Of a DNA stretch of 64,000 nt, positions 1,351 to 59,751 are shown piece by piece. Position numbers and translations under genes: made by a program. A model generated the notes under the pieces. The model had not been told where the DNA came from. It saw only the letters and a list, made by a program, of their open reading frames with translations, and made no database searches. Origin of the DNA: a bacterium (GTDB lineage Bacteria > Patescibacteriota > Minisyncoccia > Minisyncoccales > CG1-02-41-26); the NCBI GenBank assembly GCA_030616605.1, contig JAUWWY010000003.1, positions 6,707-70,706 of the forward strand, written 5' to 3'. Position 1 is the first letter of the stretch, and each line of letters begins with the position of its first letter.

Positions 1351-1986
1351 ATGAAAAAGAAAATTTGGATTTTTTTAATAATCCTCGTACTGTTGGCTGG
1401 AGGATTTTTTTATTGGTGGAGTAATCGACAATCAGAGGAAGAAGAATCACAGCCCCCTACTCTATTCAGTAAAGAAGACTATAAAATTCAAGAAAGAGCA
1501 GATGGAAAATACATTGTTGTCGAAAAGGTCGGTTTAACAGCCAAAGTACCAGAAGGATGGAGAGTAGAAAAAGAAGGAAGCGATATCCCAGAACCAGAAT
1601 ATTGGATCAATCTTTATTCACCAGATGCAGAGGTAAAAGAGATTCTAACAAAGGGGTGTAGTATAGGTGTTATGCTCGCAACCGCAACGGAAACAGTTCA
1701 GAGAATAGAAGAAAATATAAAATTATTACAAGAACACCCAGAAAAATCTAGTGAACTTAAAGATGATTACTTTTTGGCTGATAAATTTGACATTATAGAG
1801 ATAAGCGATTATTCGGCACTAAAAGTAATATCACAAGAACATCAAATTATGGGCCAAGGTATTAATGTCGATATTCCGATAGGAAGCAATGTGTGGATAA
1901 ATTTTAATACTGTATTTCCCTCAGGATATAAAGAAAAATGTTCTCCAATATGGGAAGACTTTCTGAAAACAGTAGTGATTAAATAA
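1351..1986 (+). CDS. Hypothetical membrane-anchored or secreted protein
   Basis: ORF track, 211 aa. The N-terminal hydrophobic helix is KKIWIFLIILVLLAGGFFYWW. It ends 1 nt before the next gene. Confidence 0.6.
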   Translation: MKKKIWIFLIILVLLAGGFFYWWSNRQSEEEESQPPTLFSKEDYKIQERADGKYIVVEKVGLTAKVPEGWRVEKEGSDIPEPEYWINLYSPDAEVKEILTKGCSIGVMLATATETVQRIEENIKLLQEHPEKSSELKDDYFLADKFDIIEISDYSALKVISQEHQIMGQGINVDIPIGSNVWINFNTVFPSGYKEKCSPIWEDFLKTVVIK

Positions 1987-4900: not shown

Positions 4901-6412
4901 TCCACCACCACTGATCCGGATACTGCTGAGCAAGATATTTCTTATGTTATTTATTGGGCAAAAGAAGAAATCGACGAAGAAAATGCTAGCACCACTAATC
5001 CAACTGCTTTTTCAACCAGCACGGTAACAACTACCCTTATTCTCTCTGTCCTTGATTACGACTCAACTTATTATTTCGGTATCCGAGCTTTTGACGGCGG
5101 AAATTATTCTTCCCTCTCGACTACCACTCCTTACAACACTCCTTTACCTCCAATCAATGATTTGAATGCTGGTACTTCAGCCATTAGAAAGACAGTTGAC
5201 CTTTTTTGGACAGCTCCGGGAGCAGAAAGTTATCTTATTAAGTATGCTGAAAAAGAAATTGTAGAAAACCCAACGAGCACCGAGAAAATAAGCTGGGAGG
5301 AAACCACCCTTGTTGAAAACTCAATAGTTCCTAAAGTAGCAGGAGAAATTGAAGGTTTTACTATTGAAAATTTAATTCCTGATAAAACATATTACTTTGC
5401 TATTAAATCAATAAATAAAGCAAATGCCTTCTCAGAAATTTCAAACTCTCCAAAAGCCAAAGCAATACCAGGCTTCCAAGACAATGGCGATGGAACAATA
5501 ACTGATTTATATACTGGCTTGATGTGGGTAAAAGACGGCAATGGCAGAGGCGCTAATAACGGACAGCCGCTGAGCTGGCAAGATGCAGAAACGTTTAGCG
5601 ACAACCTCGTCCTGTGTCAAAACGGGATATTCAGCACAAGCACTACCAGCACAATTTGCGCTGATAAGGGAGGAATAAAATACGATTACTGGCGCCTACC
5701 CGGGTTTAAGGAATTGGCTGCTATTGTTGATTATCAAGAGAGCAGTCCACTTATTAATCAGAACTTTTTTCCTAATACCTCCAGAACAAACTACTGGACT
5801 CTCTCTTATGATGATGTCCCTGGAATTGCTTATAATTATCCGAGCAGAAGCGATATTGAAACCGTAAATTTTAACAGCGGCACTTTGGAAATTATTTCTT
5901 CCAGAGCAGACCTACTTTATTATGTAAGACCTGTGCGCGGTCCTGCCATTGGCACACCCAACATCCTGCCGCCTGCCAATATGGACAACAGCCCAGCGCA
6001 ATACTGTCAGCTTGGTTATACAGAAAACGAAAAAACAATCACTGACAACTGCACTAACTTAATGTGGGTAAAAGGAGGCACTAGAGCTTTGTTAAGTGAT
6101 AGAGATAATGACCCTTTATCTCCTAAACCAGGCAATATTTCCTGGAAAGGAGCTGTTGCTTTTTGCGAGGGCTTAGAACTTGACGGCTATAATGACTGGC
6201 GTGTGCCTAATATTCTTGAATTGATTATAGTCGCCAATAGAAACGACCACAATATTCTTCCAACAGAAAGCGGCTATACTTATTATTATTTGTCATCTAC
6301 TGGAGATGAAAGCAATTTCTGGGGCGTTTGGAAAGAGGAAACCATAAAAACACATTATTTTTCCAAAGACAGCGGCGAACTTTACCTGCAGTGCCTGCGC
6401 AACATTAACTAA
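1988..6412 (+). CDS. Giant secreted surface protein with 2 lamin-tail domains, FN3-like repeats and 2 C-terminal DUF1566/Lcl-like domains
   Basis: There is an N-terminal signal or TM segment. NEIAWMG..NDEW(F/L)EL(K/Y)N occurs twice, which marks the LTD. The motifs TGLMWVKD, NLMWVKG, YWRLP and DWRVPNILEL fit DUF1566. Confidence 0.8.
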   Translation: MFKKAFLILISILLILFFISPEIVFAQENQNVNWPLKQGEVENLLDIIRKEPLTDANFNLFFESLSHTYSDYPRKTGAVVLVKQAILKEQLDYWFKGIPKELSKKFLKTALEIGITIITKGSYGAYDILNQLEKITVKKANEYALNWFLQNEIKIGSGETSYIFPSYKGNTQKLDIQYIIVYKPLSQNKREIVAEFYSKNPIEPPIGTRPNAIGGNRDDPRSTPWPSDRWIENERQRDNDGKLEPFIVRVKGFVERNDWNQFIWDKSKPKPVVEIDFDKPVPEIENSDIILESPPSKISFAKEISKLLLEKLKSGVGEIKDTTANLINKIKSYLTSIEPAAQIESHDLPKDLLSKLEDLWRLNLDRLTEEALSLEKIKEALEEEGKEFPEKIKLTLDELIERFDDISEEAEILLAQVENFLAKENQVIRENGMIEEKVEEEIEEEEIEKVDEEKQEGTPEQEIIFCSVSNYQTPTRNKVIINEIAWMGTTNSSNDEWFELKNISPNSIDLSGWQILDKDFQIKIVFNKEEQVSGGQTSGGGFFLLERTDDDSVLNVPADFIYTGALNDNSEALYLFDKDCNLQDKIEAISDWPAGNKNSKKTMERKSDLAWQTSRYVGGTPKAENSSGETQYNGGGGGAETPSPEQPKEEPKITLSYLEENPVNKEIEVELSVSGLEDASYDVKISIENASGTLSKIFNEKENDWKSSAYYLTNVFSGNSFKGNFRLKIIEDKQDFRGEADIVAKIRENGKSKYFEFADKINITEPEKQPLETKDYSPLDVVINEIAWMGTQADYNDEWLELYNNTPEEVDLNDWVINWGEGTSTRSINLTGNISAYGFYLLERTASTTISDIEEDQIYHGALGNEGEKLELVDLNSNLIDKVDCSSEWFAGNNETKHTMERIDPRVSGNNLENWADNNGVEINGSDAEDNSILGTPKVKNSVFSTLPPNPVSDFVIDEENSKYNTVVLTWSTTTDPDTAEQDISYVIYWAKEEIDEENASTTNPTAFSTSTVTTTLILSVLDYDSTYYFGIRAFDGGNYSSLSTTTPYNTPLPPINDLNAGTSAIRKTVDLFWTAPGAESYLIKYAEKEIVENPTSTEKISWEETTLVENSIVPKVAGEIEGFTIENLIPDKTYYFAIKSINKANAFSEISNSPKAKAIPGFQDNGDGTITDLYTGLMWVKDGNGRGANNGQPLSWQDAETFSDNLVLCQNGIFSTSTTSTICADKGGIKYDYWRLPGFKELAAIVDYQESSPLINQNFFPNTSRTNYWTLSYDDVPGIAYNYPSRSDIETVNFNSGTLEIISSRADLLYYVRPVRGPAIGTPNILPPANMDNSPAQYCQLGYTENEKTITDNCTNLMWVKGGTRALLSDRDNDPLSPKPGNISWKGAVAFCEGLELDGYNDWRVPNILELIIVANRNDHNILPTESGYTYYYLSSTGDESNFWGVWKEETIKTHYFSKDSGELYLQCLRNIN

Positions 6413-8223: not shown

Positions 8224-8763
8224 TCAATCTACTCTGGTTCCGTCAGAACGAATGTGGAACTCCTCGCCGTTCTTTGCGGCCCAAGCCAAGCCATCCTTGA
8301 AGGGACCAACAGCGTCATACCTCTGCTTATAAACAGGGATTCCATCAGCATGAATATGGAATTCCTTGTCGTCCTTTTTGACTCGAGCCAAGCCTTCATG
8401 AAAGGGACCGACAGAGTCATACCTCTGCTCGTAAGCAGGGGTTCCGTCAGAACGGATGTGGAACTCCTTGTCGTCCTTTTTGACCACAGCTAAACCTTCA
8501 TTGAAAGGACCGACAGAGTCATACCTCTGCTCGTAGGCAGGGGTTCCGTCAGGACGGATATGGAACTCTTTGCCGTCCTTTCTGGCCCAAGCCAGACCTT
8601 CATTGAAAGGACCGACAGAGTCATACCTCTGCTTGTAAACAGGGCTTCCATTAGGACGGATGTGGAACCACTCGTTGCCCTTTCTGGCCCAAGCCAGACC
8701 TTCATTGAAGTTACCAACAGAATCATACCTCCGCAACAGTTCTTCTCTTGTCAGGGTTTTCAT
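8224..8763 (-). CDS. WG/KWG-type beta-repeat protein, 5 modules
   Basis: 179 aa paralog. Confidence 0.85.
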   Translation of the reverse strand: MKTLTREELLRRYDSVGNFNEGLAWARKGNEWFHIRPNGSPVYKQRYDSVGPFNEGLAWARKDGKEFHIRPDGTPAYEQRYDSVGPFNEGLAVVKKDDKEFHIRSDGTPAYEQRYDSVGPFHEGLARVKKDDKEFHIHADGIPVYKQRYDAVGPFKDGLAWAAKNGEEFHIRSDGTRVD

Positions 8764-18304: not shown

Positions 18305-19010
18305 GTTTTAATAAACAATTAATTAAAGAAATATTTTTTTTAAAATCCATCCTTTTTGGACCGAGAATTGCAAATGTTGGTTTGTTTTTTGCTCTTGAAC
18401 TGTGACCAATAATAATACTAAATTCTTTTCTCTTAAAAGGAGATTCTTTACCAATATAAATTTTAATTTCTTTGTCTTGGTTAACAAAATCAAGTTTATC
18501 AATATTCTCCTCCAAAGCATTAACTAGTTCTGTAAATTTTCTCAAGTAATCAAGATTATGAAATTCTGGGACCTGTAAAATTTCTTCCCAACCTTCTTTC
18601 CAAAAAATACCAAAATCTTGAACAAAAACTACACCTAAATTAGAAGAAAAACAAGCCAAATTTTTCGCAACCTCCTGAGAAAAACGTAAAACGTCACTTA
18701 TTTGTTTGGAAATTAGTTCAAAGTCTTCAAAGATATTTTTCTCAGTTAATTCAAAATTTTCTTTTTCAAATAAATTATCCACAAAAAACCTATAACCCTT
18801 GTCAGTCGGCACTCTTCCTCCAGAAATATAACCCTTTTCCAAAAAGCCTGTTTGGGTTAATTCAGCAAAATCTAATCTGATGGTCGCCGGCGAAATTTCC
18901 AAACCACATTCTTGCTTTAAAAAACCAGAGCTTATAGGAATTGCTGTTTTAATGTATTCTTGGACCAGTTTTTCTAATATTTCTTTTTGTCTCTCAGTAA
19001 TATCTAACAT
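18297..19010 (-). CDS. hrcA: Heat-inducible repressor HrcA, short form of 237 aa
   Basis: N-terminal wHTH (ERQKEILEKLVQEYI...PISS). Operon context and an upstream CIRCE-like element support the call. Confidence 0.8.
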   Translation of the reverse strand: MLDITERQKEILEKLVQEYIKTAIPISSGFLKQECGLEISPATIRLDFAELTQTGFLEKGYISGGRVPTDKGYRFFVDNLFEKENFELTEKNIFEDFELISKQISDVLRFSQEVAKNLACFSSNLGVVFVQDFGIFWKEGWEEILQVPEFHNLDYLRKFTELVNALEENIDKLDFVNQDKEIKIYIGKESPFKRKEFSIIIGHSSRAKNKPTFAILGPKRMDFKKNISLINCLLKHG

Positions 19011-30017: not shown

Positions 30018-30128
30018 ATTTGGCGACGACCTACTTTCGCACAAAAGCACTATCATCGGCCCTGAGGTATTTCACTTCCGAGTTCGGAATGGGATCGGGT
30101 GGGACAACCTCGGTATTATCGCCAAATA
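30018..30128 (-). rRNA. rrf: 5S rRNA
   Basis: The minus strand reads ...CCCACCCGATCCCATTCCGAACTCGGAAGTGAAA.... It is flanked by the inverted repeat AAAACCCCTAATATTTGGCG / CGCCAAATATTAGGGGTTTT. Confidence 0.9.
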
Positions 30129-30180
30129 TTAGGGGTTTTTAAGGTGATTATCATTGATTATCGGCTAAATTTTAAACTGA

Positions 30181-33180
<3,000 letters not shown>

Positions 33181-33390
33181 GGTTCAGCTTAAAATTTAGC
33201 CGATAATCAATAATAACCACATAAATAACCACATATTTAATGCAATTAAATTTTTAAAGAACTTCATTCAATCAGCTAGGAAATTAAAAACTACTTCTCG
33301 AAAGAAGCAGTTAAAATTCAGATAAAAAATCTCTGGTTTCTAACCACCTCTTTTAATAAAAACTAGTTTAAAATCCTGCATACTTTTTTT

Positions 33391-33418
33391 AGTTTAACAA
33401 AATAAAAAGGCTTGTCAA
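33391..33418 (-). promoter_or_regulatory. Separate 23S-5S promoter TTGACA-16-TAAACT
   Basis: The minus strand reads GGGGGTTGACAAGCCTTTTTATTTTGTTAAACT. Confidence 0.6.
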
Positions 33419-33424
33419 CCCCCA

Positions 33425-33471
33425 TAAAAAACAAACTTACCTCTTTTCCTGAAAAAGAAGTAAGTTTGTTT
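33425..33471 (-). terminator. Strong terminator after the membrane protein gene
   Basis: A stem of about 19 bp, AAACAAACTTAC.TCTTTT/AAAAGA.GTAAGTTTGTTT, followed by TTTTTT. Confidence 0.75.
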
Positions 33472-33524
33472 TCAAGAAACCTTTTTTTGGAGTTTACTCG
33501 CCCACTTTTTAGAAAAGTGGGGAA

Positions 33525-34205
33525 TTATTCTCCAACTTTTCTTCTAAATTGCTCTAAAAGGTCTCTGGCTAAATCTTTTCCTCCGATACCAAAAGCAATA
33601 GAAGAACTAATAACAATCAATGCAACAAATCCTGAAACCAAAATCTGAATAATCTCTTTAGCTATTCCTAACTGAGACAAAATTGCTAAAATAGCAAAAA
33701 TCCAAACTGCCCACTTAACAATTGCTCCTAAAACCTTAGAAGAAGCAACTTCCATTCTGCCAACAATCGCCTTTGCTAATTTCTCAGAAAAATCAGCTAC
33801 AATTGCTGCTACCACAAAAATAGCAACAGCTATCAATAAGTTAGGAAGCCAGCTAACAATATCTTTTAAAAAGCCGGCAAATGCTGTTAAACCCAAAATT
33901 TGAACCGATGCCAATAAAAAGACAATTATCAAAACCCATTTGACTATCGATCCAATAAAATCTGAAACTGTCATTTTAAACTCGGCTTTCTCCAATACTT
34001 TATCCCATTTTGCCTTTTCAAAAATTCTATTCAGCCTCAATCTTTTTAAAAGCTCAGCAATACCTTTTCCAACCCAAATAGCAATTAACCAACCGATTAT
34101 AAAGACAATCAAAGCTCCAATCAGCTCAGGAAGAAAACTTATAAAACCCTCCCAGAGTTTCTGAAGGGCGTTTAGAGTAATAGATGACCAATCTTGAAGA
34201 AACAT
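33525..34205 (-). CDS. Polytopic membrane protein with conserved TM-helix repeats, like the N-terminal region of MscS
   Basis: 226 aa with repeated helices of the type LPNLLIAVAIFVVAAIVADFSEKLAKAIV. Confidence 0.6.
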   Translation of the reverse strand: MFLQDWSSITLNALQKLWEGFISFLPELIGALIVFIIGWLIAIWVGKGIAELLKRLRLNRIFEKAKWDKVLEKAEFKMTVSDFIGSIVKWVLIIVFLLASVQILGLTAFAGFLKDIVSWLPNLLIAVAIFVVAAIVADFSEKLAKAIVGRMEVASSKVLGAIVKWAVWIFAILAILSQLGIAKEIIQILVSGFVALIVISSSIAFGIGGKDLARDLLEQFRRKVGE

Positions 34206-34279
34206 ATTTATTCAGCTTAAAAAATCTTATAAACCTCTCCGACCTTTATTATAGAATCTTAATCTATTATACAAAATAA

Positions 34280-34576
34280 TAAAAAGAGCCGACAAGAGCC
34301 AGCTGTGGATAACTCAAACGAGAAAAAAAGTGGAAATTGCTGGAAAAAGTTAGAACCCATTACCAGAAAAATCCGGACTCCTGACCTGCCCGCCACGGGC
34401 AGTAATCCGCTAACGCGGATTCCCACCCTCCACTCATATGTCCTGCTTCGCAGGATAGACAAACGGGTAAAAAATATCCTTCCCCAGACCCCTTCCTTTT
34501 TTTACCCGTCTGCTCAAAAGGCGAGCCGGGGGGGAATTTCCGCGCTTCGTGCGGAAAAAAATCTATAAAGGATTAT
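34280..34576 (-). ncRNA. Unclassified structured RNA of about 295 nt (or a long cis-leader)
   Basis: It has its own TGCTATAAT promoter. There are at least six hairpins, including 7-bp stems AATCCGC/GCGGATT and CTGCCCG/CGGGCAG and a 16-bp A/U-clamped stem with a 23-nt purine loop. It ends in a terminator-like AGCUGGC-UCUU-GUCGGCU plus a U-run. Confidence 0.55.
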
Positions 34577-34582
34577 GGGATC

Positions 34583-34591
34583 ATTATAGCA
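34583..34591 (-). promoter_or_regulatory. Extended -10 promoter TGCTATAAT for the structured RNA
   Basis: The minus strand reads TTTTTTGCTATAATGATCC. Confidence 0.5.
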
Positions 34592-34632
34592 AAAAATCGC
34601 CTATTTGGCGACCCCGTTGAGGGTGAACCTCA
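34591..34632 (-). terminator. Terminator of the HTH-HEPN operon
   Basis: Hairpins TTGAGG-TTCAC-CCTCAA and TCGCC-AAATA-GGCGA followed by TTTTTT. Confidence 0.65.
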
Positions 34633-34655
34633 ACAAGCTAGCTTAGGGGTAAATT

Positions 34656-35441
34656 TTAGTTATTTTGGGAGTGAAGATACTGTATATAGGCAAACCAATC
34701 ACGAGCATGAACTTTCAGGCGTTCTAGATCTTTTCCCGTGATAGGATTGTTGTGAGCAATAACATTCCTCGTCGGTCTAAGCTCTTCTAACTTGGCAATT
34801 AAATTTTTTGCTGCACCTTTTTTAAAGAATTTTGAAAAGATAGAGTCAAATACTCTTATAATTCGCAGCAAATCTCCATAATCGGTGTAATAAATTTCAT
34901 GGACACCTCTTTTTGAATGATACCAATTCTCTGATTCTTTGGTCTTTCTATCTGAAACTCTTTTAACTATTTCCTTTAAAGATTTCTTACCCTGTAACTG
35001 ATCCCACCAATTTCCTCCAAAAATATTCGAAAGTGTTCTTATTATAAAAATACGAATTGAGTTTTCTAATGCAAACATAATAGAATATCCCTCGGAGGGA
35101 ATATTTGAATATAAAGAATCTTGCAGATATGGGTCAGCGAACTCACTCCTGATATCGGCTACAGGCTTTATAGTCTTCTTTTTAAGGCTAATGTCGCCAG
35201 GAACATTCCTTTTGTTAATTTCAGTGGCTAGTTGCATCTGTTGAGATGGATTCAGTTTTTTGAATATCGAAGACGAACCAATCTTATATTTGTTTGCAGT
35301 TATGACTAGAGCCACCTCGGGAGCAATGTTCTTCCTTGAAGCCAAAGCACTGACACTTTTAACAATTGCTAGATCCGATTTGCGTGCCTTTTTAGCAATT
35401 TTATGAATCAGTTTTTTATTTAGAATTGGAGGCCTACCCAT
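34656..35441 (-). CDS. HEPN-domain protein, Swt1-like; predicted RNase
   Basis: 261 aa. The C-terminal motif LRPTRNVIAHNNPI contains R-x4-H. The upstream segment ALENSIRIFIIRTL...NWWDQ fits Swt1-type HEPN. Confidence 0.65.
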   Translation of the reverse strand: MGRPPILNKKLIHKIAKKARKSDLAIVKSVSALASRKNIAPEVALVITANKYKIGSSSIFKKLNPSQQMQLATEINKRNVPGDISLKKKTIKPVADIRSEFADPYLQDSLYSNIPSEGYSIMFALENSIRIFIIRTLSNIFGGNWWDQLQGKKSLKEIVKRVSDRKTKESENWYHSKRGVHEIYYTDYGDLLRIIRVFDSIFSKFFKKGAAKNLIAKLEELRPTRNVIAHNNPITGKDLERLKVHARDWFAYIQYLHSQNN

Positions 35442-35446
35442 ATTTC

Positions 35447-35620
35447 TTAAAATTTCTTCTTAATTCGCCTCGTGGAAACCATCCGACTAACAATTGCGGG
35501 ATCAATTCCCAAAACGCTGGCGATATCTTTACTCTGAACGCCTTGATGGGTAAGAGCTAAAACAAGAAGCTTTTTAATATCCTCAAGTAGTTGGTTTGTT
35601 TTCTTATTATTGTCCATCAT
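35447..35620 (-). CDS. Mini-HTH protein, paralog 4 (57 aa)
   Basis: Own translation: MMDNNKKTNQLLEDIKKLLVLALTHQGVQSKDIASVLGIDPAIVSRMVSTRRIKKKF. It is below the ORF-track cutoff. Its architecture matches the three upstream paralogs. Confidence 0.55.
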   Translation of the reverse strand: MMDNNKKTNQLLEDIKKLLVLALTHQGVQSKDIASVLGIDPAIVSRMVSTRRIKKKF

Positions 35621-35622
35621 AG

Positions 35623-35829
35623 TTATTTAGATTTGTTAGGTTTCTTTATACCTTTTAAAATTTTATTTACACGACCATCACTCATGCCCATAATTTTGGC
35701 AATATTATTTTGTCCAAGATCTGTACTCGCATATAAAAGTCCGACTCCAAAACGTTCCAAGAGTTCAATGGTCCGATCTGAACTGGCAGATTTCGATTGT
35801 TTTTTAATTATCTTCTTCTTTTTTTCCAT
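35623..35829 (-). CDS. Mini-HTH protein, paralog 3 (68 aa)
   Basis: HTH-like segment GQNNIAKIMGMSDGRVNKILKGIKK. Confidence 0.6.
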   Translation of the reverse strand: MEKKKKIIKKQSKSASSDRTIELLERFGVGLLYASTDLGQNNIAKIMGMSDGRVNKILKGIKKPNKSK

Positions 35830-35831
35830 AG

Positions 35832-36047
35832 TTATTTTCTATTCTTTTTAAGACGATTTTTTATTACATTCACTGTGTTAGGCGATGTGTTAAGTATTTC
35901 AGCAATCTCAGAATTCCCCATTCCGAAACGAGATAGCGCCTGGACTCCTTCCGTCGTTGAGAAGTTCTCGGATTGCACATTCATTTGAAGTGCAATTAAT
36001 ACCCCTAATCGCCTTGCAATAGATTCAAGTAATTCTTTATTTTCCAT
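35832..36047 (-). CDS. Mini-HTH protein, paralog 2 (71 aa)
   Basis: HTH-like segment LSRFGMGNSEIAEILNTSPNTVNVIKNRLKK, similar to sigma region 4 or LuxR. Confidence 0.6.
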   Translation of the reverse strand: MENKELLESIARRLGVLIALQMNVQSENFSTTEGVQALSRFGMGNSEIAEILNTSPNTVNVIKNRLKKNRK

Positions 36048-36049
36048 GA

Positions 36050-36277
36050 TTATTTTTTACTTTTTTTAAGTTCTGATAATTCTTTACTTATATAGCCGAC
36101 CTTTTTACTGAGAATATCTGCAATTTCTGAAGAATTCAGACCAAAAGCAGATAATTCTCTGATTTGTTCCTTAAGTGTTACCTCTCCACCATCATTCGCA
36201 ATTTTCAACAAAAGAGAGATAACAATGCTTAATTTGCGATCAATTGATTGGGTGATATTATTATTTTCTTTTGGCAT
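36050..36277 (-). CDS. Mini-HTH protein, paralog 1 (75 aa)
   Basis: HTH-like segment LSAFGLNSSEIADILSKKVGYISKELSELKK. Confidence 0.6.
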   Translation of the reverse strand: MPKENNNITQSIDRKLSIVISLLLKIANDGGEVTLKEQIRELSAFGLNSSEIADILSKKVGYISKELSELKKSKK

Positions 36278-36315
36278 GTAATTGACTGTTAAGTAAATAA
36301 AAGAGGCCCATAGTT

Positions 36316-36343
36316 ATTGTAGACCTTTAAAATATGCTGTCAA
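36316..36343 (-). promoter_or_regulatory. Promoter TTGACA-16-TACAAT of the HTH-HEPN operon
   Basis: The minus strand reads CTTGACAGCATATTTTAAAGGTCTACAAT. Confidence 0.6.
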
Positions 36344-36486
36344 GTGGTAATGCTACTGTTTACCTATGTAACAAATTTTATCAATAAGTTTTATATCCCC
36401 CATTTTTAATTTCCTACGTCTCCAATAATTTTAATCTCCTCCGATAGTTGAATTTTTATTAGTACCAAACTCGATTTTAATTACTG

Positions 36487-36559
36487 TGGACCGTGCCAGA
36501 TTCGAACTGGCGACCTCCCGCGTGCAAGGCGGGTGCTCTTCCAACTAAGCTAACGGCCC
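36487..36559 (-). tRNA. tRNA-Ala(UGC), no encoded CCA
   Basis: Hand fold: acceptor GGGCCGT/ACGGTCC with the G3:U70 identity pair, and anticodon loop CTTGCAC. Confidence 0.9.
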
Positions 36560-36564
36560 TCATG

Positions 36565-36636
36565 TGGGCGCGGATGGAATCGAACCATCAACCTCTGTCT
36601 TATCAGGACAGCGTTCTACCACTGAACTACGCGCCC
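36565..36636 (-). tRNA. tRNA-Ile(GAU), no encoded CCA
   Basis: Hand fold: acceptor GGGCGCG/CGCGCCC and anticodon loop CTGATAA. Confidence 0.9.
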
Positions 36637-36836
36637 AAAAGTATTTATATTACACTATATTATCATAAAATCAAAAATAAAAAAACTCCTCCAAAGGAGT
36701 TTTCTGTTTATTGGTTTCTCTGAGTTGCTCCGAGAGTCGAGTTTTGAGATGATTCGACTAACACCTAAGAGTTAAAATTCGAATTCCAAATTTCAACTCT
36801 TGTCGACACTGTCTGCCGGTTGGCAAACAATTATAG

Positions 36837-38340
<1,504 letters not shown>

Positions 38341-38407
38341 AAAATGAGTACTCGAAGCAACTCAGAAAAACCAATAAATTGTAAAGAACATCTTTTTTAA
38401 CCCTTTT

Positions 38408-38435
38408 ATCTTAATCGTTTTATTTCTTTTGTCAA
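38408..38435 (-). promoter_or_regulatory. 16S promoter TTGACA-16-TAAGAT
   Basis: The minus strand reads GGTTGACAAAAGAAATAAAACGATTAAGAT. Confidence 0.6.
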
Positions 38436-38470
38436 CCTTTTCCGAGGTTAAATTTCGGGAAATTCAAAGG

Positions 38471-38542
38471 AGCCGAGGAGAGGATTTGAACCCCCAACCT
38501 ATGGTTTACAAAACCATTGCTCTACCATTGAGCTACCTCGGC
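38471..38542 (-). tRNA. tRNA-Thr(UGU), no encoded CCA
   Basis: Hand fold: acceptor GCCGAGG/CCTCGGC and anticodon loop TTTGTAA. Confidence 0.85.
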
Positions 38543-57450: not shown

Positions 57451-59751
57451 TTATTCCTCTTCCTCCTCTTCTTCTTCTTCTTCTATTACTTCTTCTCTTT
57501 CTAATTCTTCAATTTTTGTTTTAACTAACTCATTATTGGGATTGAGTGCTAAAACTTTTTCAAATTCCTCCAAAGCTTTATCCTTTAGTCCTTTTATTTC
57601 ATAAGTTAAACCCAAAGAATAATGAGAATTGGAATGGTTGGGAGAAATAATTATAGCACTCTGAAACTGACCAATTGCTTTGTCATATTCCTTCTGATTG
57701 AAATAAAACCTGCCTAATTGAAAGTGAGCCTCAACTGAAAAAGGGTTGTTCTTAACTATTTCCTCTAACCGCAGTCCTGCCTCTTCTTTCTTTCCCTCTT
57801 CCTCGTCTATTAAGGCAAGTTGAATTCCGGGCTCAACATAATCTCCTCTTAATTCCAAAGCTTTGTTAAACCAAACTTTAGCTTCTTCTATCTTTTCCTC
57901 TGTAATCTTAAACTTTCCCAACTCATTCATTAAAACAGGGTTTTTGGGTTCAAGCTCCAAGGCATCTTCAAAACTTTTAATCCCCCATTCCAAAACTCCC
58001 TGAGCCAGTCCTTGAATATCGCGGTAGACTATACCCAATGTCTGATGAACAGCAACTCTCTTTGGAGAAACCTCTACTGCTCTTTGTGCTTCCCTAATAG
58101 CCAAAGCAGTCATATTTATTATCAACTGATTATCAGGTTGAACTTTGGTAAACTCGTTAGAAATCTCTACCAAATATCCTCTGGCTAAAGTCATATGATA
58201 AGTTGCCCTGGAATCATTTAACCTAGTAGAACTTTCTATTTTTTCAAAATTCTCTGCTGGACTTACTAAATAATCTCTATAATAAGCGTCAGCCACATAG
58301 TATTTAATCATAATAAAAGAGAAAAATCCGAGACCAATCAGGGCAACCCAAAACAAAATACTGAAAATTAGACCGATTTCTGGAAAATCGCGAAAGTTAA
58401 AGGTTTTCTCTTTTTGGGGCTTATCCCAGCTGACTGCTCCCAAGGCCAAAAATAACCAGAAGCTGAAAGCTAATGTTGTGTTTTGGTAAAAGACAAACTG
58501 GCTGGCTAACAAACCAAAAAAGGTGAGTAAAATAGGCAGCTGAAACTTAATACTTGATTCTTTAATCTTGGAGATTATAACAATCCAAGAAACCATTAAA
58601 AACATTCCGAGCAAAGCAAGGAAACTTAAAATTCCTAAAACTCCGGTTGTGCCAAGAAGTTCGGCAATATGATTTCCTGCCCTATCAAATCTTATTTGCC
58701 AGAAAGGTGTTTCTAAAAAGCTTTGGGGCTTGAACTTGGCAAAAAGATAATTGAAAGTACTATTTCCCGAACCAAAAACTATGTTTTCTTTCAATCCCTG
58801 AAAGCCAACGTTCCAGCTCATGCCTTGGGACAAATTAATTTCTCTTGGCAAATTAGAAAAGGTTTGAGTTTGTTGGAAAAACCCTTGTAAGGGATTAGTA
58901 AAAAGGAAAATAAGAGAAATTAGCAGGAACAAGATAGACAAGCTCAGCCGATTGACATCTTCTCTGAAAACTCTTTTCCAGAAACCAAATATCAGGAATA
59001 AAAGTAAAGAAAGAGAAATAACCAGCCAAGCCGGCCAGAAATCAACCAAAATTAAAAGGAGAAAAATAGCAAAAAGAAAAACATAAAGCCAAATAGAACT
59101 TGTCTTGAGCGCGCGGAAAGAACTTGTTCTGGGTTTATCAAGGGATTTTTTCCGAAAAGCTAGCATTGCAATCAGAAGAATAAAGATAATTGCTAAATAC
59201 ATTACTAGCTGGGCGCTTGAACCGCCAATCGGGTTAAAGGTTTTAAAAAGCATAACCTGGGGTAATACCAGGATACTATTGATTTTTGTCCAAATACCCA
59301 AAAGAGAAAAATAACTTATCAAAACAACAAAGAAAGAAGACCATAAAAATGTTTTCAGTATTCCATTAATTGACAGTCCCTTGTTTGAAGGGGAAACATT
59401 ATTGGTAACCAAAAAATAAAAAACTCCAAGCGACAATATTCCAATTAGATTGGGCCAAATCCGGCCGTAAAAACCAAAGATGCTTGAAGTTTTATCCACT
59501 GAAAAGACAGCATTTAGAATCATAACCAAGAGAAAAACGAGTACAAAGATATCAAGCGGACCTTTTTTAAATCTGATTTTCTTTTCTTTAAAAATCATCC
59601 CTGTCAACCAGGCTAAAAAGCCGATTGAAACCAAGAAAAAGAGTAAATAAGTTTTATTAAACTCAAATACTTCAACTGAACTAGAGAGCCAAAAAAGAGG
59701 AAGTAGAAAGACTAAGAGATAAATTGAAACTTTGACAATTTTTTGCCACAT
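57451..59751 (-). CDS. O-antigen ligase/polymerase-like polytopic membrane protein with C-terminal TPR repeats and a poly-Glu tail
   Basis: More than 10 TM helices, the Wzy_C-like motif RAGNHIAELLGTTGVLG, and TPRs in the last 250 aa or so. Confidence 0.7.
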   Translation of the reverse strand: MWQKIVKVSIYLLVFLLPLFWLSSSVEVFEFNKTYLLFFLVSIGFLAWLTGMIFKEKKIRFKKGPLDIFVLVFLLVMILNAVFSVDKTSSIFGFYGRIWPNLIGILSLGVFYFLVTNNVSPSNKGLSINGILKTFLWSSFFVVLISYFSLLGIWTKINSILVLPQVMLFKTFNPIGGSSAQLVMYLAIIFILLIAMLAFRKKSLDKPRTSSFRALKTSSIWLYVFLFAIFLLLILVDFWPAWLVISLSLLLFLIFGFWKRVFREDVNRLSLSILFLLISLIFLFTNPLQGFFQQTQTFSNLPREINLSQGMSWNVGFQGLKENIVFGSGNSTFNYLFAKFKPQSFLETPFWQIRFDRAGNHIAELLGTTGVLGILSFLALLGMFLMVSWIVIISKIKESSIKFQLPILLTFFGLLASQFVFYQNTTLAFSFWLFLALGAVSWDKPQKEKTFNFRDFPEIGLIFSILFWVALIGLGFFSFIMIKYYVADAYYRDYLVSPAENFEKIESSTRLNDSRATYHMTLARGYLVEISNEFTKVQPDNQLIINMTALAIREAQRAVEVSPKRVAVHQTLGIVYRDIQGLAQGVLEWGIKSFEDALELEPKNPVLMNELGKFKITEEKIEEAKVWFNKALELRGDYVEPGIQLALIDEEEGKKEEAGLRLEEIVKNNPFSVEAHFQLGRFYFNQKEYDKAIGQFQSAIIISPNHSNSHYSLGLTYEIKGLKDKALEEFEKVLALNPNNELVKTKIEELEREEVIEEEEEEEEEE

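Follow-up and report, generated by a model that had tools for sequence, protein, structure and literature searches.

A structured element in a split rRNA operon of a Patescibacteria genome as a diverged copy of a repeat family, possibly the arm of tRNA-associated islands

The stretch of DNA considered in this study (64,000 nucleotides of contig JAUWWY010000003.1, referred to below as the window) comes from an AT-rich genome of the Patescibacteria, or Candidate Phyla Radiation (CPR), and the nearest relatives of its genes are found in metagenome-assembled genomes of Paceibacterota/Parcubacteria. The subject is a GC-rich, non-coding element at 34330..34560 on the minus strand, lying within a split rRNA operon (30018-38542, same strand). 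The 5' limit of the element is approximate, and its 3' limit is fixed by the ...CCAC boundary of a family of repeats to which, judged by the comparisons below, it belongs as a diverged copy. I will refer to the family as E, a name coined here, to large serine recombinases as LSRs, and to fetched loci, where they need to be told apart, by L-numbers.

The operon is split by protein-coding genes. All of its parts lie on the minus strand, in the order 16S rRNA (36837-38342), tRNA-Ile and tRNA-Ala(UGC) (36636-36486, the latter occupying 36486..36559), four small open reading frames (ORFs) assigned by Pfam to helix-turn-helix (HTH) proteins (36277-35447), a gene assigned by Pfam to HEPN_Swt1 (35441-34656) that directly precedes E, E itself, a gene encoding a membrane protein with a conserved MscS-type transmembrane helix (33525..34205), 23S rRNA (33180-30182), and finally 5S rRNA. 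The 3' end of the 16S rRNA (36837-36850) reads ...GGUAGAUCAUUUCUUUA and, in alignments, does not contain CCUCC, the usual anti-Shine-Dalgarno sequence. One relative (L004) has a group II intron domain (RF01998, positions 2063-2144 of that locus) just downstream of its 16S rRNA.

In another relative (L002), tRNA-Ala is followed after 206 nt by the membrane-protein gene and then by 23S rRNA. The placement of the membrane-protein gene between tRNA-Ala and 23S rRNA is common to L002 and the window and is therefore ancestral in the lineage, making it a gene of the backbone. Since L002 lacks the stretch of HTH genes, HEPN gene and E, the window carries an insertion of about 2.1 kb (34330..36485). 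The proximal edge of this island is the 3' end of tRNA-Ala (...GGUCCAC), and its distal edge is E, which has the same orientation as the tRNA and a tail that ends in ...UUUCCAC. Homology between the backbones of the window and L002 resumes 16 nt past position 34330, the last conserved base of E.

The initial annotation took positions 34280-34591 to be a single RNA gene with its own promoter and terminator. Every sequence feature it listed (hairpins, a TGCTATAAT box and a terminator-like hairpin) is found on the minus strand where it was placed. The TGCTATAAT box (34591-34583) is part of a sigma-70-like promoter site (34583..34611), consisting of TCGCCA, 17 nt and TG-n-TATAAT, that scores 10/12 and has an extended -10. 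Within the element lie a UUCCGC/GCGGAA hairpin (34556-34538), a hairpin (H1, 34459..34513) with a 16-bp stem and a 23-nt purine loop whose core is GGGGUCUGGGG (34482-34492), and three others (UCCUGC-GAA-GCAGGA, AAUCCGC-GUUA-GCGGAUU, and CUGCCCG-UGG-CGGGCAG). The terminator-like hairpin (AGCUGGC-UCUU-GUCGGCU and a run of U, 34287..34304) comes 26 nt past the end of E and overlaps the -35 sequence of the membrane-protein gene. Plausible sites for a promoter and a terminator are therefore both present in the window copy. The interval as a whole does not stand: the unit conserved in the family stops at 34330, and the last ~50 nt (34329-34280) are part of the promoter region of the membrane-protein gene, a region that orthologues without E retain.

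The GC richness remarked upon in the annotation is confirmed, with a GC fraction of 0.45-0.55 over 34300-34600 and 0.26-0.39 on the flanks. The fold of minimum free energy (MFE) comes to -105.7 kcal/mol (z = -2.33), and one of 100 shuffled sequences was equally stable, so the element folds better than chance, though not dramatically so. Besides the conserved tail, it has a closing stem and three hairpins, two of them inner and one 3'. A pseudoknot had been suggested between an upstream C-run and the G-rich loop of H1. In the MFE fold, the C-run (AUUCCCCCCC) does not pair with the loop but with the downstream GGAGGGUGGGAAU, forming the long closing stem.

The description of the element as non-coding, strongly structured and unclassifiable by Rfam holds up well. 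Rfam 15 gave no overlap with 34280-34600, either at gathering thresholds in the window or at an e-value of 10 or better in a slice of 3.8 kb (33100-36900), and canonical copies of E from eight loci had no match at an e-value of 1 or better. Its models reject RNase P, tmRNA, SRP, 6S, T-box, cobalamin and FMN, and signature sequences of the first four were not recognised by eye either. Group I and group II introns, HEARO, GOLLD, ROOL and raiA likewise had no score at or near the gathering threshold. A group I intron is further rejected in that the element lies outside tRNA and rRNA genes and its terminal base is not G. A paper on tRNA introns in Patescibacteria is concerned, at least in part, with tRNA-Asn and tRNA-Asp (PMC13011429).

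The first sign that the element belongs to a family came from L018 (Nealsonbacteria), the only locus that shared a 25-nt stretch with the window, which it did twice. When metagenomic contigs were scanned with the 19-nt motif AATGGGTTCTNACTTTTTC, at least 120 contigs matched, and about 107 true copies are among the matches listed. The family counts given below refer to these copies, which come from CPR metagenomes. A scan of IMG/VR for a phage origin produced a single match, a chance one inside a coding region.

Copies of E are 165-305 nt long. Their bodies are modular and palindromic, forming upstream of the tail subfamilies that are 130 to 270 nt long and begin sharply at the 5' side (often with GCCGCCG...), and their last 45 nt are nearly invariant. 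All of the listed copies share ...GGGTTCTCCGCAAAATGGGTTCTGACTTTTTCAAACAAACACCAC, and the family ends sharply with ...CAAACAAACACCAC(CA): conservation exceeds 90% through CACCAC, is 57-75% for the following CA, and is random beyond. Many contigs start or break 60-90 nt inside E and several hold two copies, which is the behaviour of a repeat.

A hidden Markov model of 83 unique family tails, applied to the window with nhmmer, found one match (e-value 2.2e-07, 31.4 bits), at 34330..34385 on the minus strand, where the conserved 3' tail reads ...GGAUUUUUCUGGUAAUGGGUUCUAACUUUUUCCAGCAAUUUCCAC. The family signature in this region is ...GGGTTCT..AATGGGTTCTRACTTTTTC..CACCAC with a sharp end. The window has AATGGGTTCTAACTTTTTCCAGCAATTTCCAC, and its last 14 nt have diverged. 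The core of the H1 loop (GGGGTCTGGGG) is the exact reverse complement of the commonest loop in the family (CCCCAGACCCC) and is the sole motif of this kind in the window, which thus shares with the family a long hairpin with a G4-N3-G4 loop (or C4-N3-C4 when inverted). The MFE layout is that of the consensus of the 300-nt subfamily, with a GC-rich closing stem, inner hairpins and an unpaired tail, though the sequences of the stems cannot be aligned. Judged by its tail, loop and layout, the window element is a diverged solo copy of E, and what had been considered a single discrete RNA gene becomes one member of a multi-copy repeat family. A candidate for a second copy in the window (58843-58881) proved to be a weak match inside a 766-aa ORF and was put down to chance. 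The family itself is apparently undescribed, found neither in Rfam 15 nor in a full-text search of the literature, which was not exhaustive.

Seven contigs have two copies of E, and in six of the seven the copies are arranged (-)...(+), their tips pointing outward around 1.4-4.7 kb of DNA. In five of these six units (L086, L102, L142, L145 and L194) the paired copies flanking the cargo are each other's best match, with identities of 100% over 210 bp, 100% over 194 bp, 97%, 91%, and 89% (over 136 bp), and the units are otherwise different from one another. Their cargo is of an accessory or defence type: XRE, CYTH, methyltransferases, a C5 DNA methylase, a LexA-like protein and a trypsin-like protein. 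Fuller islands have a second, inverted E at the edge near the tRNA; the window has one copy, with no inverted partner beside its tRNA-Ala. The whole of contig L199 is a near-perfect palindrome (tRNA-Ile, tRNA-Ala, LSR, E, and then the mirror image), probably a fold-back assembly artefact at the repeat, and it was left out of the counts.

The orientation of E with respect to tRNA genes is not random. In 15 of 16 cases, E and the nearest tRNA or tmRNA gene within 8 kb on its 5' side have the same orientation; this gene is tRNA-Ala for the most part, at a distance of 2-4 kb. The window copy is placed in the same way, with tRNA-Ala 2.1 kb upstream on the same strand and the island between them. 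Beyond the tip, a tRNA or tmRNA gene is found within 150 nt in 8 of 103 cases (five tRNA-Ala, one tRNA-Ile and two tmRNA), as compared to 1.7 expected.

Some of these loci can be compared directly. L102 shares the backbone of the window, with the order tRNA-Ile, tRNA-Ala, a recombinase unit, an inverted E, XRE and three ORFs, a second E, the conserved promoter of the membrane-protein gene (see below), and the gene itself. Between the island and the membrane-protein gene of this locus (8300-8620, plus strand) there is also a strong promoter-like TTGTTATAAT followed by about 300 nt of GC-rich sequence, which has no Rfam match at an e-value of 1 or better and could be a further RNA or repeat outside the known classes. 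On both sides of the unit E-XRE-CYTH-methyltransferase-E of L194/L208, which lies downstream of tmRNA, there is a direct repeat of ~44 bp consisting of the CCACCA of the tmRNA and its terminator hairpin. In the related L211 (SmpB 88% identical), the tmRNA, the terminator and TGGTGG are followed directly by the next backbone gene, HtrA. The tmRNA of L211/L212 was not called by ARAGORN though its sequence is present, and these loci have a small GIY-YIG ORF between smpB and tmRNA (5448-5699) and another before argS. L184 and L190 have a complete tRNA-Ala followed by partial 3' fragments of tRNA (the T-arm in both, and in L184 the acceptor end as well), which look like scars of repeated integration.

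The only gene that recurs as a neighbour of the listed copies is that of an LSR. Twelve loci have the same order: the tail of E, about 226 nt, a gene encoding an LSR of ~500 aa (with Resolvase, Recombinase and Zn-ribbon domains), and a tRNA on the opposite strand, into which the 3' end of the LSR gene runs. Inverted repeats of 68-133 nt enclose the gene; they are 91-100% identical (100% in L142 and L144), with a constant 1479-1486 nt between them, and their outer ends are the CCAC(CA) of the tRNA and the CCAC(CA) of the E tail. The sequence past the CCAC(CA) of the tRNA is the same as the sequence past the CCAC(CA) of the E tip, inverted. Units of this kind are found at L142 7769-9498, L144 2053-3782, L162 9251-10995, L102 4005-5650, and L165 478-2095. 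By the evidence of its junctions, the 1.7-kb recombinase-only unit is similar to an insertion sequence (IS) and sits exactly between the CCAC(CA) end of the tRNA and the tip of E. The repeat at the 3' end of the gene also encodes the C-terminal ~30 residues of the LSR. No LSR gene is present within the window. What follows the tip of E is often a terminator hairpin or the repeat of the recombinase unit. A guide RNA of TnpB/IscB or a derivative of IS200/IS605 was considered and rejected: there is no TnpA, TnpB or IscB neighbour, and the flank past the tip is not guide-like.

The cargo of the window island (34656-36277, minus strand) has its own distribution. The same module, with 3-5 small ORFs (53-88 aa) and then HEPN_Swt1, recurs at 63-90% identity in other metagenomes. 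Two of the window's four small ORFs are paralogous, and one homologue of the small ORFs has a weak HTH match. The homologues occupy islands with restriction-modification, KAP-NTPase and DUF3800 genes, and the HTH and HEPN_Swt1 set looks like a mobile module of the defence type. A tie between this module and E was rejected, since six loci with close HEPN homologues (63-90%) keep the upstream small ORFs and reside in islands without E. The cargo is thus an independent module.

The membrane-protein gene has a promoter of its own, with a -35 sequence of TTGTCG at 34295-34290 and a -10 sequence at 34271-34266 (minus strand). Its promoter region includes a GTTATCCACA box (34304..34313, minus strand) that belongs to the backbone and lies outside E. 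In 13 fetched loci the box has a matching position relative to the membrane-protein orthologue, 90-170 nt upstream of it, and in L102 as well the GTTATCCACA promoter stands before the gene. The box is probably a conserved regulatory site of the gene. The perfect DnaA-box consensus TTATCCACA, which stands there in the form GTTATCCACA, occurs three times in the window, as compared to 0.34 expected, at 34304-34313 (minus strand), 1892-1900 (minus) and 18775-18783 (plus). A AAAGGTCG motif after the -10 (34240-34247, minus strand) is conserved in nine orthologous loci.

I take E to be the conserved end, or arm, of small accessory-gene islands at the 3' side of tRNA-Ala-like genes (here tRNA-Ala, tmRNA and tRNA-Val), working mainly at the level of DNA, a reading to which I would give a probability of roughly 0.55. 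The terminal CCAC(CA) of E is the terminal sequence of the tRNA or tmRNA that the island abuts. The tip would then be a recombination half-site or an arm of the attP type, with CCAC marking a putative crossover, and the GC-rich palindromic body would be an arm with a structural role or one that binds protein, and not a sequence-specific RNA. The exact junctions of the LSR-unit repeat with the CCAC(CA) of the tRNA, on the one side, and with that of E, on the other, make the tip a candidate for the recombination site of the LSR. The window copy would be a one-ended remnant, the distal end of a reduced island that has lost its recombinase and its inner E. Because the tips point outward and terminators often follow, E is probably transcribed as well, as the 3' end of island transcripts, and one might speculate that its hairpins could block read-through toward the 23S rRNA side.

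Several points weigh against this reading. A flanking direct repeat is seen in one of the six units (L194/L208) and is absent from L145, L086 and L102; the right ends of the L137 and L142 units run off the contig. Many copies stand alone between convergent genes, and neither a tRNA nor a recombinase is seen with them. The tip of E and the ends of tRNAs have only CCAC(CA) in common, and long arms are not known to be needed by LSRs. L004 has 6 kb of genes between tRNA-Ala and the membrane-protein gene, the same hot spot as in the window, without E. Added to these are observations that would be expected as well of an RNA. Terminator-like hairpins lie within 75 nt after 32 of 102 tails (31%) but after only 5 of 149 controls (3%), a difference of about 9-fold. 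E shares its orientation with the downstream gene in 52 of 76 cases. On the sense strand (-92.4) the fold of the window copy is more stable by 13 kcal/mol than on the antisense strand (-79.4), with 10 as opposed to 4 G-U pairs, and its promoter-like and terminator-like sites fit an expressed RNA.

The terminators, the co-oriented genes and the sense-strand folding of the window copy favour transcription, and they lend themselves to a different explanation, that mobile islands carry E as a structured non-coding RNA with a function of its own. In the window copy, transcription would start from TGCTATAAT and end at the 34304-34287 hairpin, and the body would be a scaffold for the functional part, an unstructured CA-rich tail with a tRNA-like ACCACCA that might serve, for example, as a decoy for a protein or nuclease or as a mimic of a tRNA 3' end. 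The extreme conservation of the tail fits this idea, as do compensatory changes in 15 of the 65 pairs predicted for the consensus of the 300-nt subfamily. However, the antisense alignment of that subfamily folds equally well (-80.6 kcal/mol with 74 pairs, as compared to -78.2 in the sense direction), the sense strand is the more stable in 28 of 76 unique copies, and G-U counts are equal on the two strands, so that strand-specific structure as a property of the family was rejected. The motif of the main hairpin loop is on the tail strand in 21 of 79 elements and inverted in 24, giving G-rich loops in the former and C-rich loops in the latter and hence very different RNAs, and other modules flip too. 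A -10-like box is found upstream of E in 27 of 51 cases in the sense direction and 20 of 51 in the antisense, with no fixed spacing. A dedicated family promoter was accordingly rejected, and the promoter of the window copy is not a family feature. The lack of strand bias, the flipping modules and the unenriched, unpositioned -10 boxes point to the level of DNA. Paired copies that are 100% identical inverted repeats fit homogenisation of DNA, several copies start only a few nucleotides from the stop codon upstream, and there is no relative in Rfam. I therefore hold a functional RNA to be unlikely as the explanation of the family, and the same facts (no consistent promoter, no strand bias in folding, a hairpin that occurs both ways, and inverted pairs around cargo) speak against the discrete RNA gene of the initial annotation. 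It is possible that the window copy is transcribed, and its promoter and terminator may make it an expressed RNA of ~290 nt, which the evidence from the family does not require.

The annotation had offered as an alternative that the element is a cis-acting leader, attenuator or riboswitch of the downstream membrane-protein gene. E is indeed 124 nt upstream of this gene on the same strand, the orthologue in L018/L183 also has an upstream E, and tails of E face the gene in the window, L018/L183, L102, L081 and L169. But of the 80 fetched genomic loci that encode a relative of this protein (L001-L080), just one (L018) has the tail of E, and the four closest orthologues (L001-L004, 61-67% identity), like most others, have no E-like sequence upstream. 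These four keep the promoter box, the -10 and the AAAGGTCG motif, which in the window sit downstream of E (34313-34240), so that the gene's own conserved promoter box lies beyond the supposed leader. E is found in about 100 unrelated gene contexts among the listed copies and matches no riboswitch in Rfam. A leader is most improbable and already contradicted by the comparative data. E might otherwise be an intergenic mosaic repeat that is selfish or neutral, of the type of repetitive extragenic palindromes and bacterial interspersed mosaic elements (REP/BIME), BOX, or MITEs (miniature transposable elements with inverted repeats), with no role in the mobility of islands. Spread by some unspecified enzyme, it would build up in safe spots near terminators and tRNA genes, and its position at island edges would be incidental. 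This would account for a multi-copy family at which assemblies break, built of modules in either orientation, with many solo copies just upstream of terminators between ordinary-looking convergent genes and no transposase consistently encoded inside the units. Passive scatter would not be expected, however, to produce the co-orientation with tRNAs in 15 of 16 cases, the tails-outward pairing in six of seven contigs, or the exact CCAC recombinase junctions. A MITE was specifically rejected, in that the 5' end (GCCGCCG...) and 3' end (...CACCAC) of a single copy are not inverted repeats and no duplication flanks solo copies; target-site duplication as a general feature was rejected too, having been seen only for the L194/L208 unit. 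I consider a passive repeat rather improbable.

If E is the arm of an island, then one may go further and ask whether E and the recombinase-only unit are the two parts of a mobile system, specific to CPR and undescribed, an idea that I regard as tentative. Long, structured inverted repeats would enclose the cassettes, their tips copying the CCACCA 3' end of tRNA-Ala or tmRNA. A tRNA end facing the tip of E would make a palindromic CCAC|GTGG landing site, which the minimal 1.7-kb LSR element would use, allowing the capture, inversion or movement of cassettes at tRNA-Ala-like genes, those in rRNA operons among them.

The exchange of genes is poorly understood in CPR/Patescibacteria, whose genomes are tiny. 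A study of 125 Patescibacteria genomes from an aquifer reports hundreds of genomic islands, in a text without the terms tRNA, integrase, serine recombinase or inverted repeat (PMC12455944). If the reading of E as an island arm is true, then its searchable 45-nt tip could delimit islands near tRNA-Ala and tmRNA in thousands of fragmented CPR assemblies, and E would explain why contigs break at such sites. The recombinase-only unit, with its exact CCAC(CA) junctions, could provide an LSR that is compact, site-specific and directed at a short, defined target. There is also a caution here: the stability of a fold is not sufficient by itself to annotate GC-rich islands of AT-rich genomes as novel RNA genes.

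E may be compared with several known systems. Islands flanked by attachment (att) sites at tRNA and tmRNA genes (the Islander type, and the tycheposons of Prochlorococcus, bioRxiv 10.1101/2020.12.28.424599) place small cargo at the 3' ends of these genes, as E does. They too have hot spots of variable content, with many islands lacking an integrase of their own, and to these likenesses may be added the 3' fragments of tRNA in L184 and L190 and the one unit with a direct repeat of a tRNA-like 3' end and terminator. They differ in that the edge formed by E is a conserved structured element of 165-305 bp, not just a partial copy of a tRNA with which it shares only CCAC(CA), that the enzyme is an LSR and not a tyrosine integrase, and that two inverted copies often enclose the cargo.

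The REP/BIME elements of enterobacteria and BOX elements of pneumococci are multi-copy, intergenic, GC-rich palindromic mosaics with modules that go either way, often between convergent genes. E is like them in its palindromic mosaic build, its terminator neighbours and its likely transcription in 3' untranslated regions, and unlike them in its invariant, asymmetric 45-nt tip with a sharp end, its rule of orientation to tRNAs and its pairs flanking cargo, with no enzyme like the REP-associated tyrosine transposases (RAYT) seen nearby. GOLLD (RF01728) and ROOL are large, ornate RNAs of prophages found near tRNA genes. E resembles them as a GC-rich, multi-helix, non-coding element linked to mobile DNA near tRNA genes, but is far smaller, has no match in Rfam 15 and no strand-specific structure, and has modules that occur both ways. 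Serine recombinases are also at work in the transposons Tn4451 and Tn5397 (with TnpX/TndX) and in the cassettes of SCCmec (with Ccr). Here the likeness to E lies in an LSR at the edge of a mobile unit, a short, defined insertion sequence and cassettes piling up beside a conserved gene. The unit linked to E, in contrast, carries an LSR only, has inverted repeats of 68-133 bp that include its own C-terminal codons, and is placed between two CCAC(CA) ends that are inverted to each other; neither this architecture nor a partner element like E was found in the literature in a search that was not exhaustive. E is like tRNA islands and tycheposons in where it lies and how it behaves, like REP/BIME and BOX in build, and like SCCmec and Tn4451 in enzyme, and it differs from each of them.

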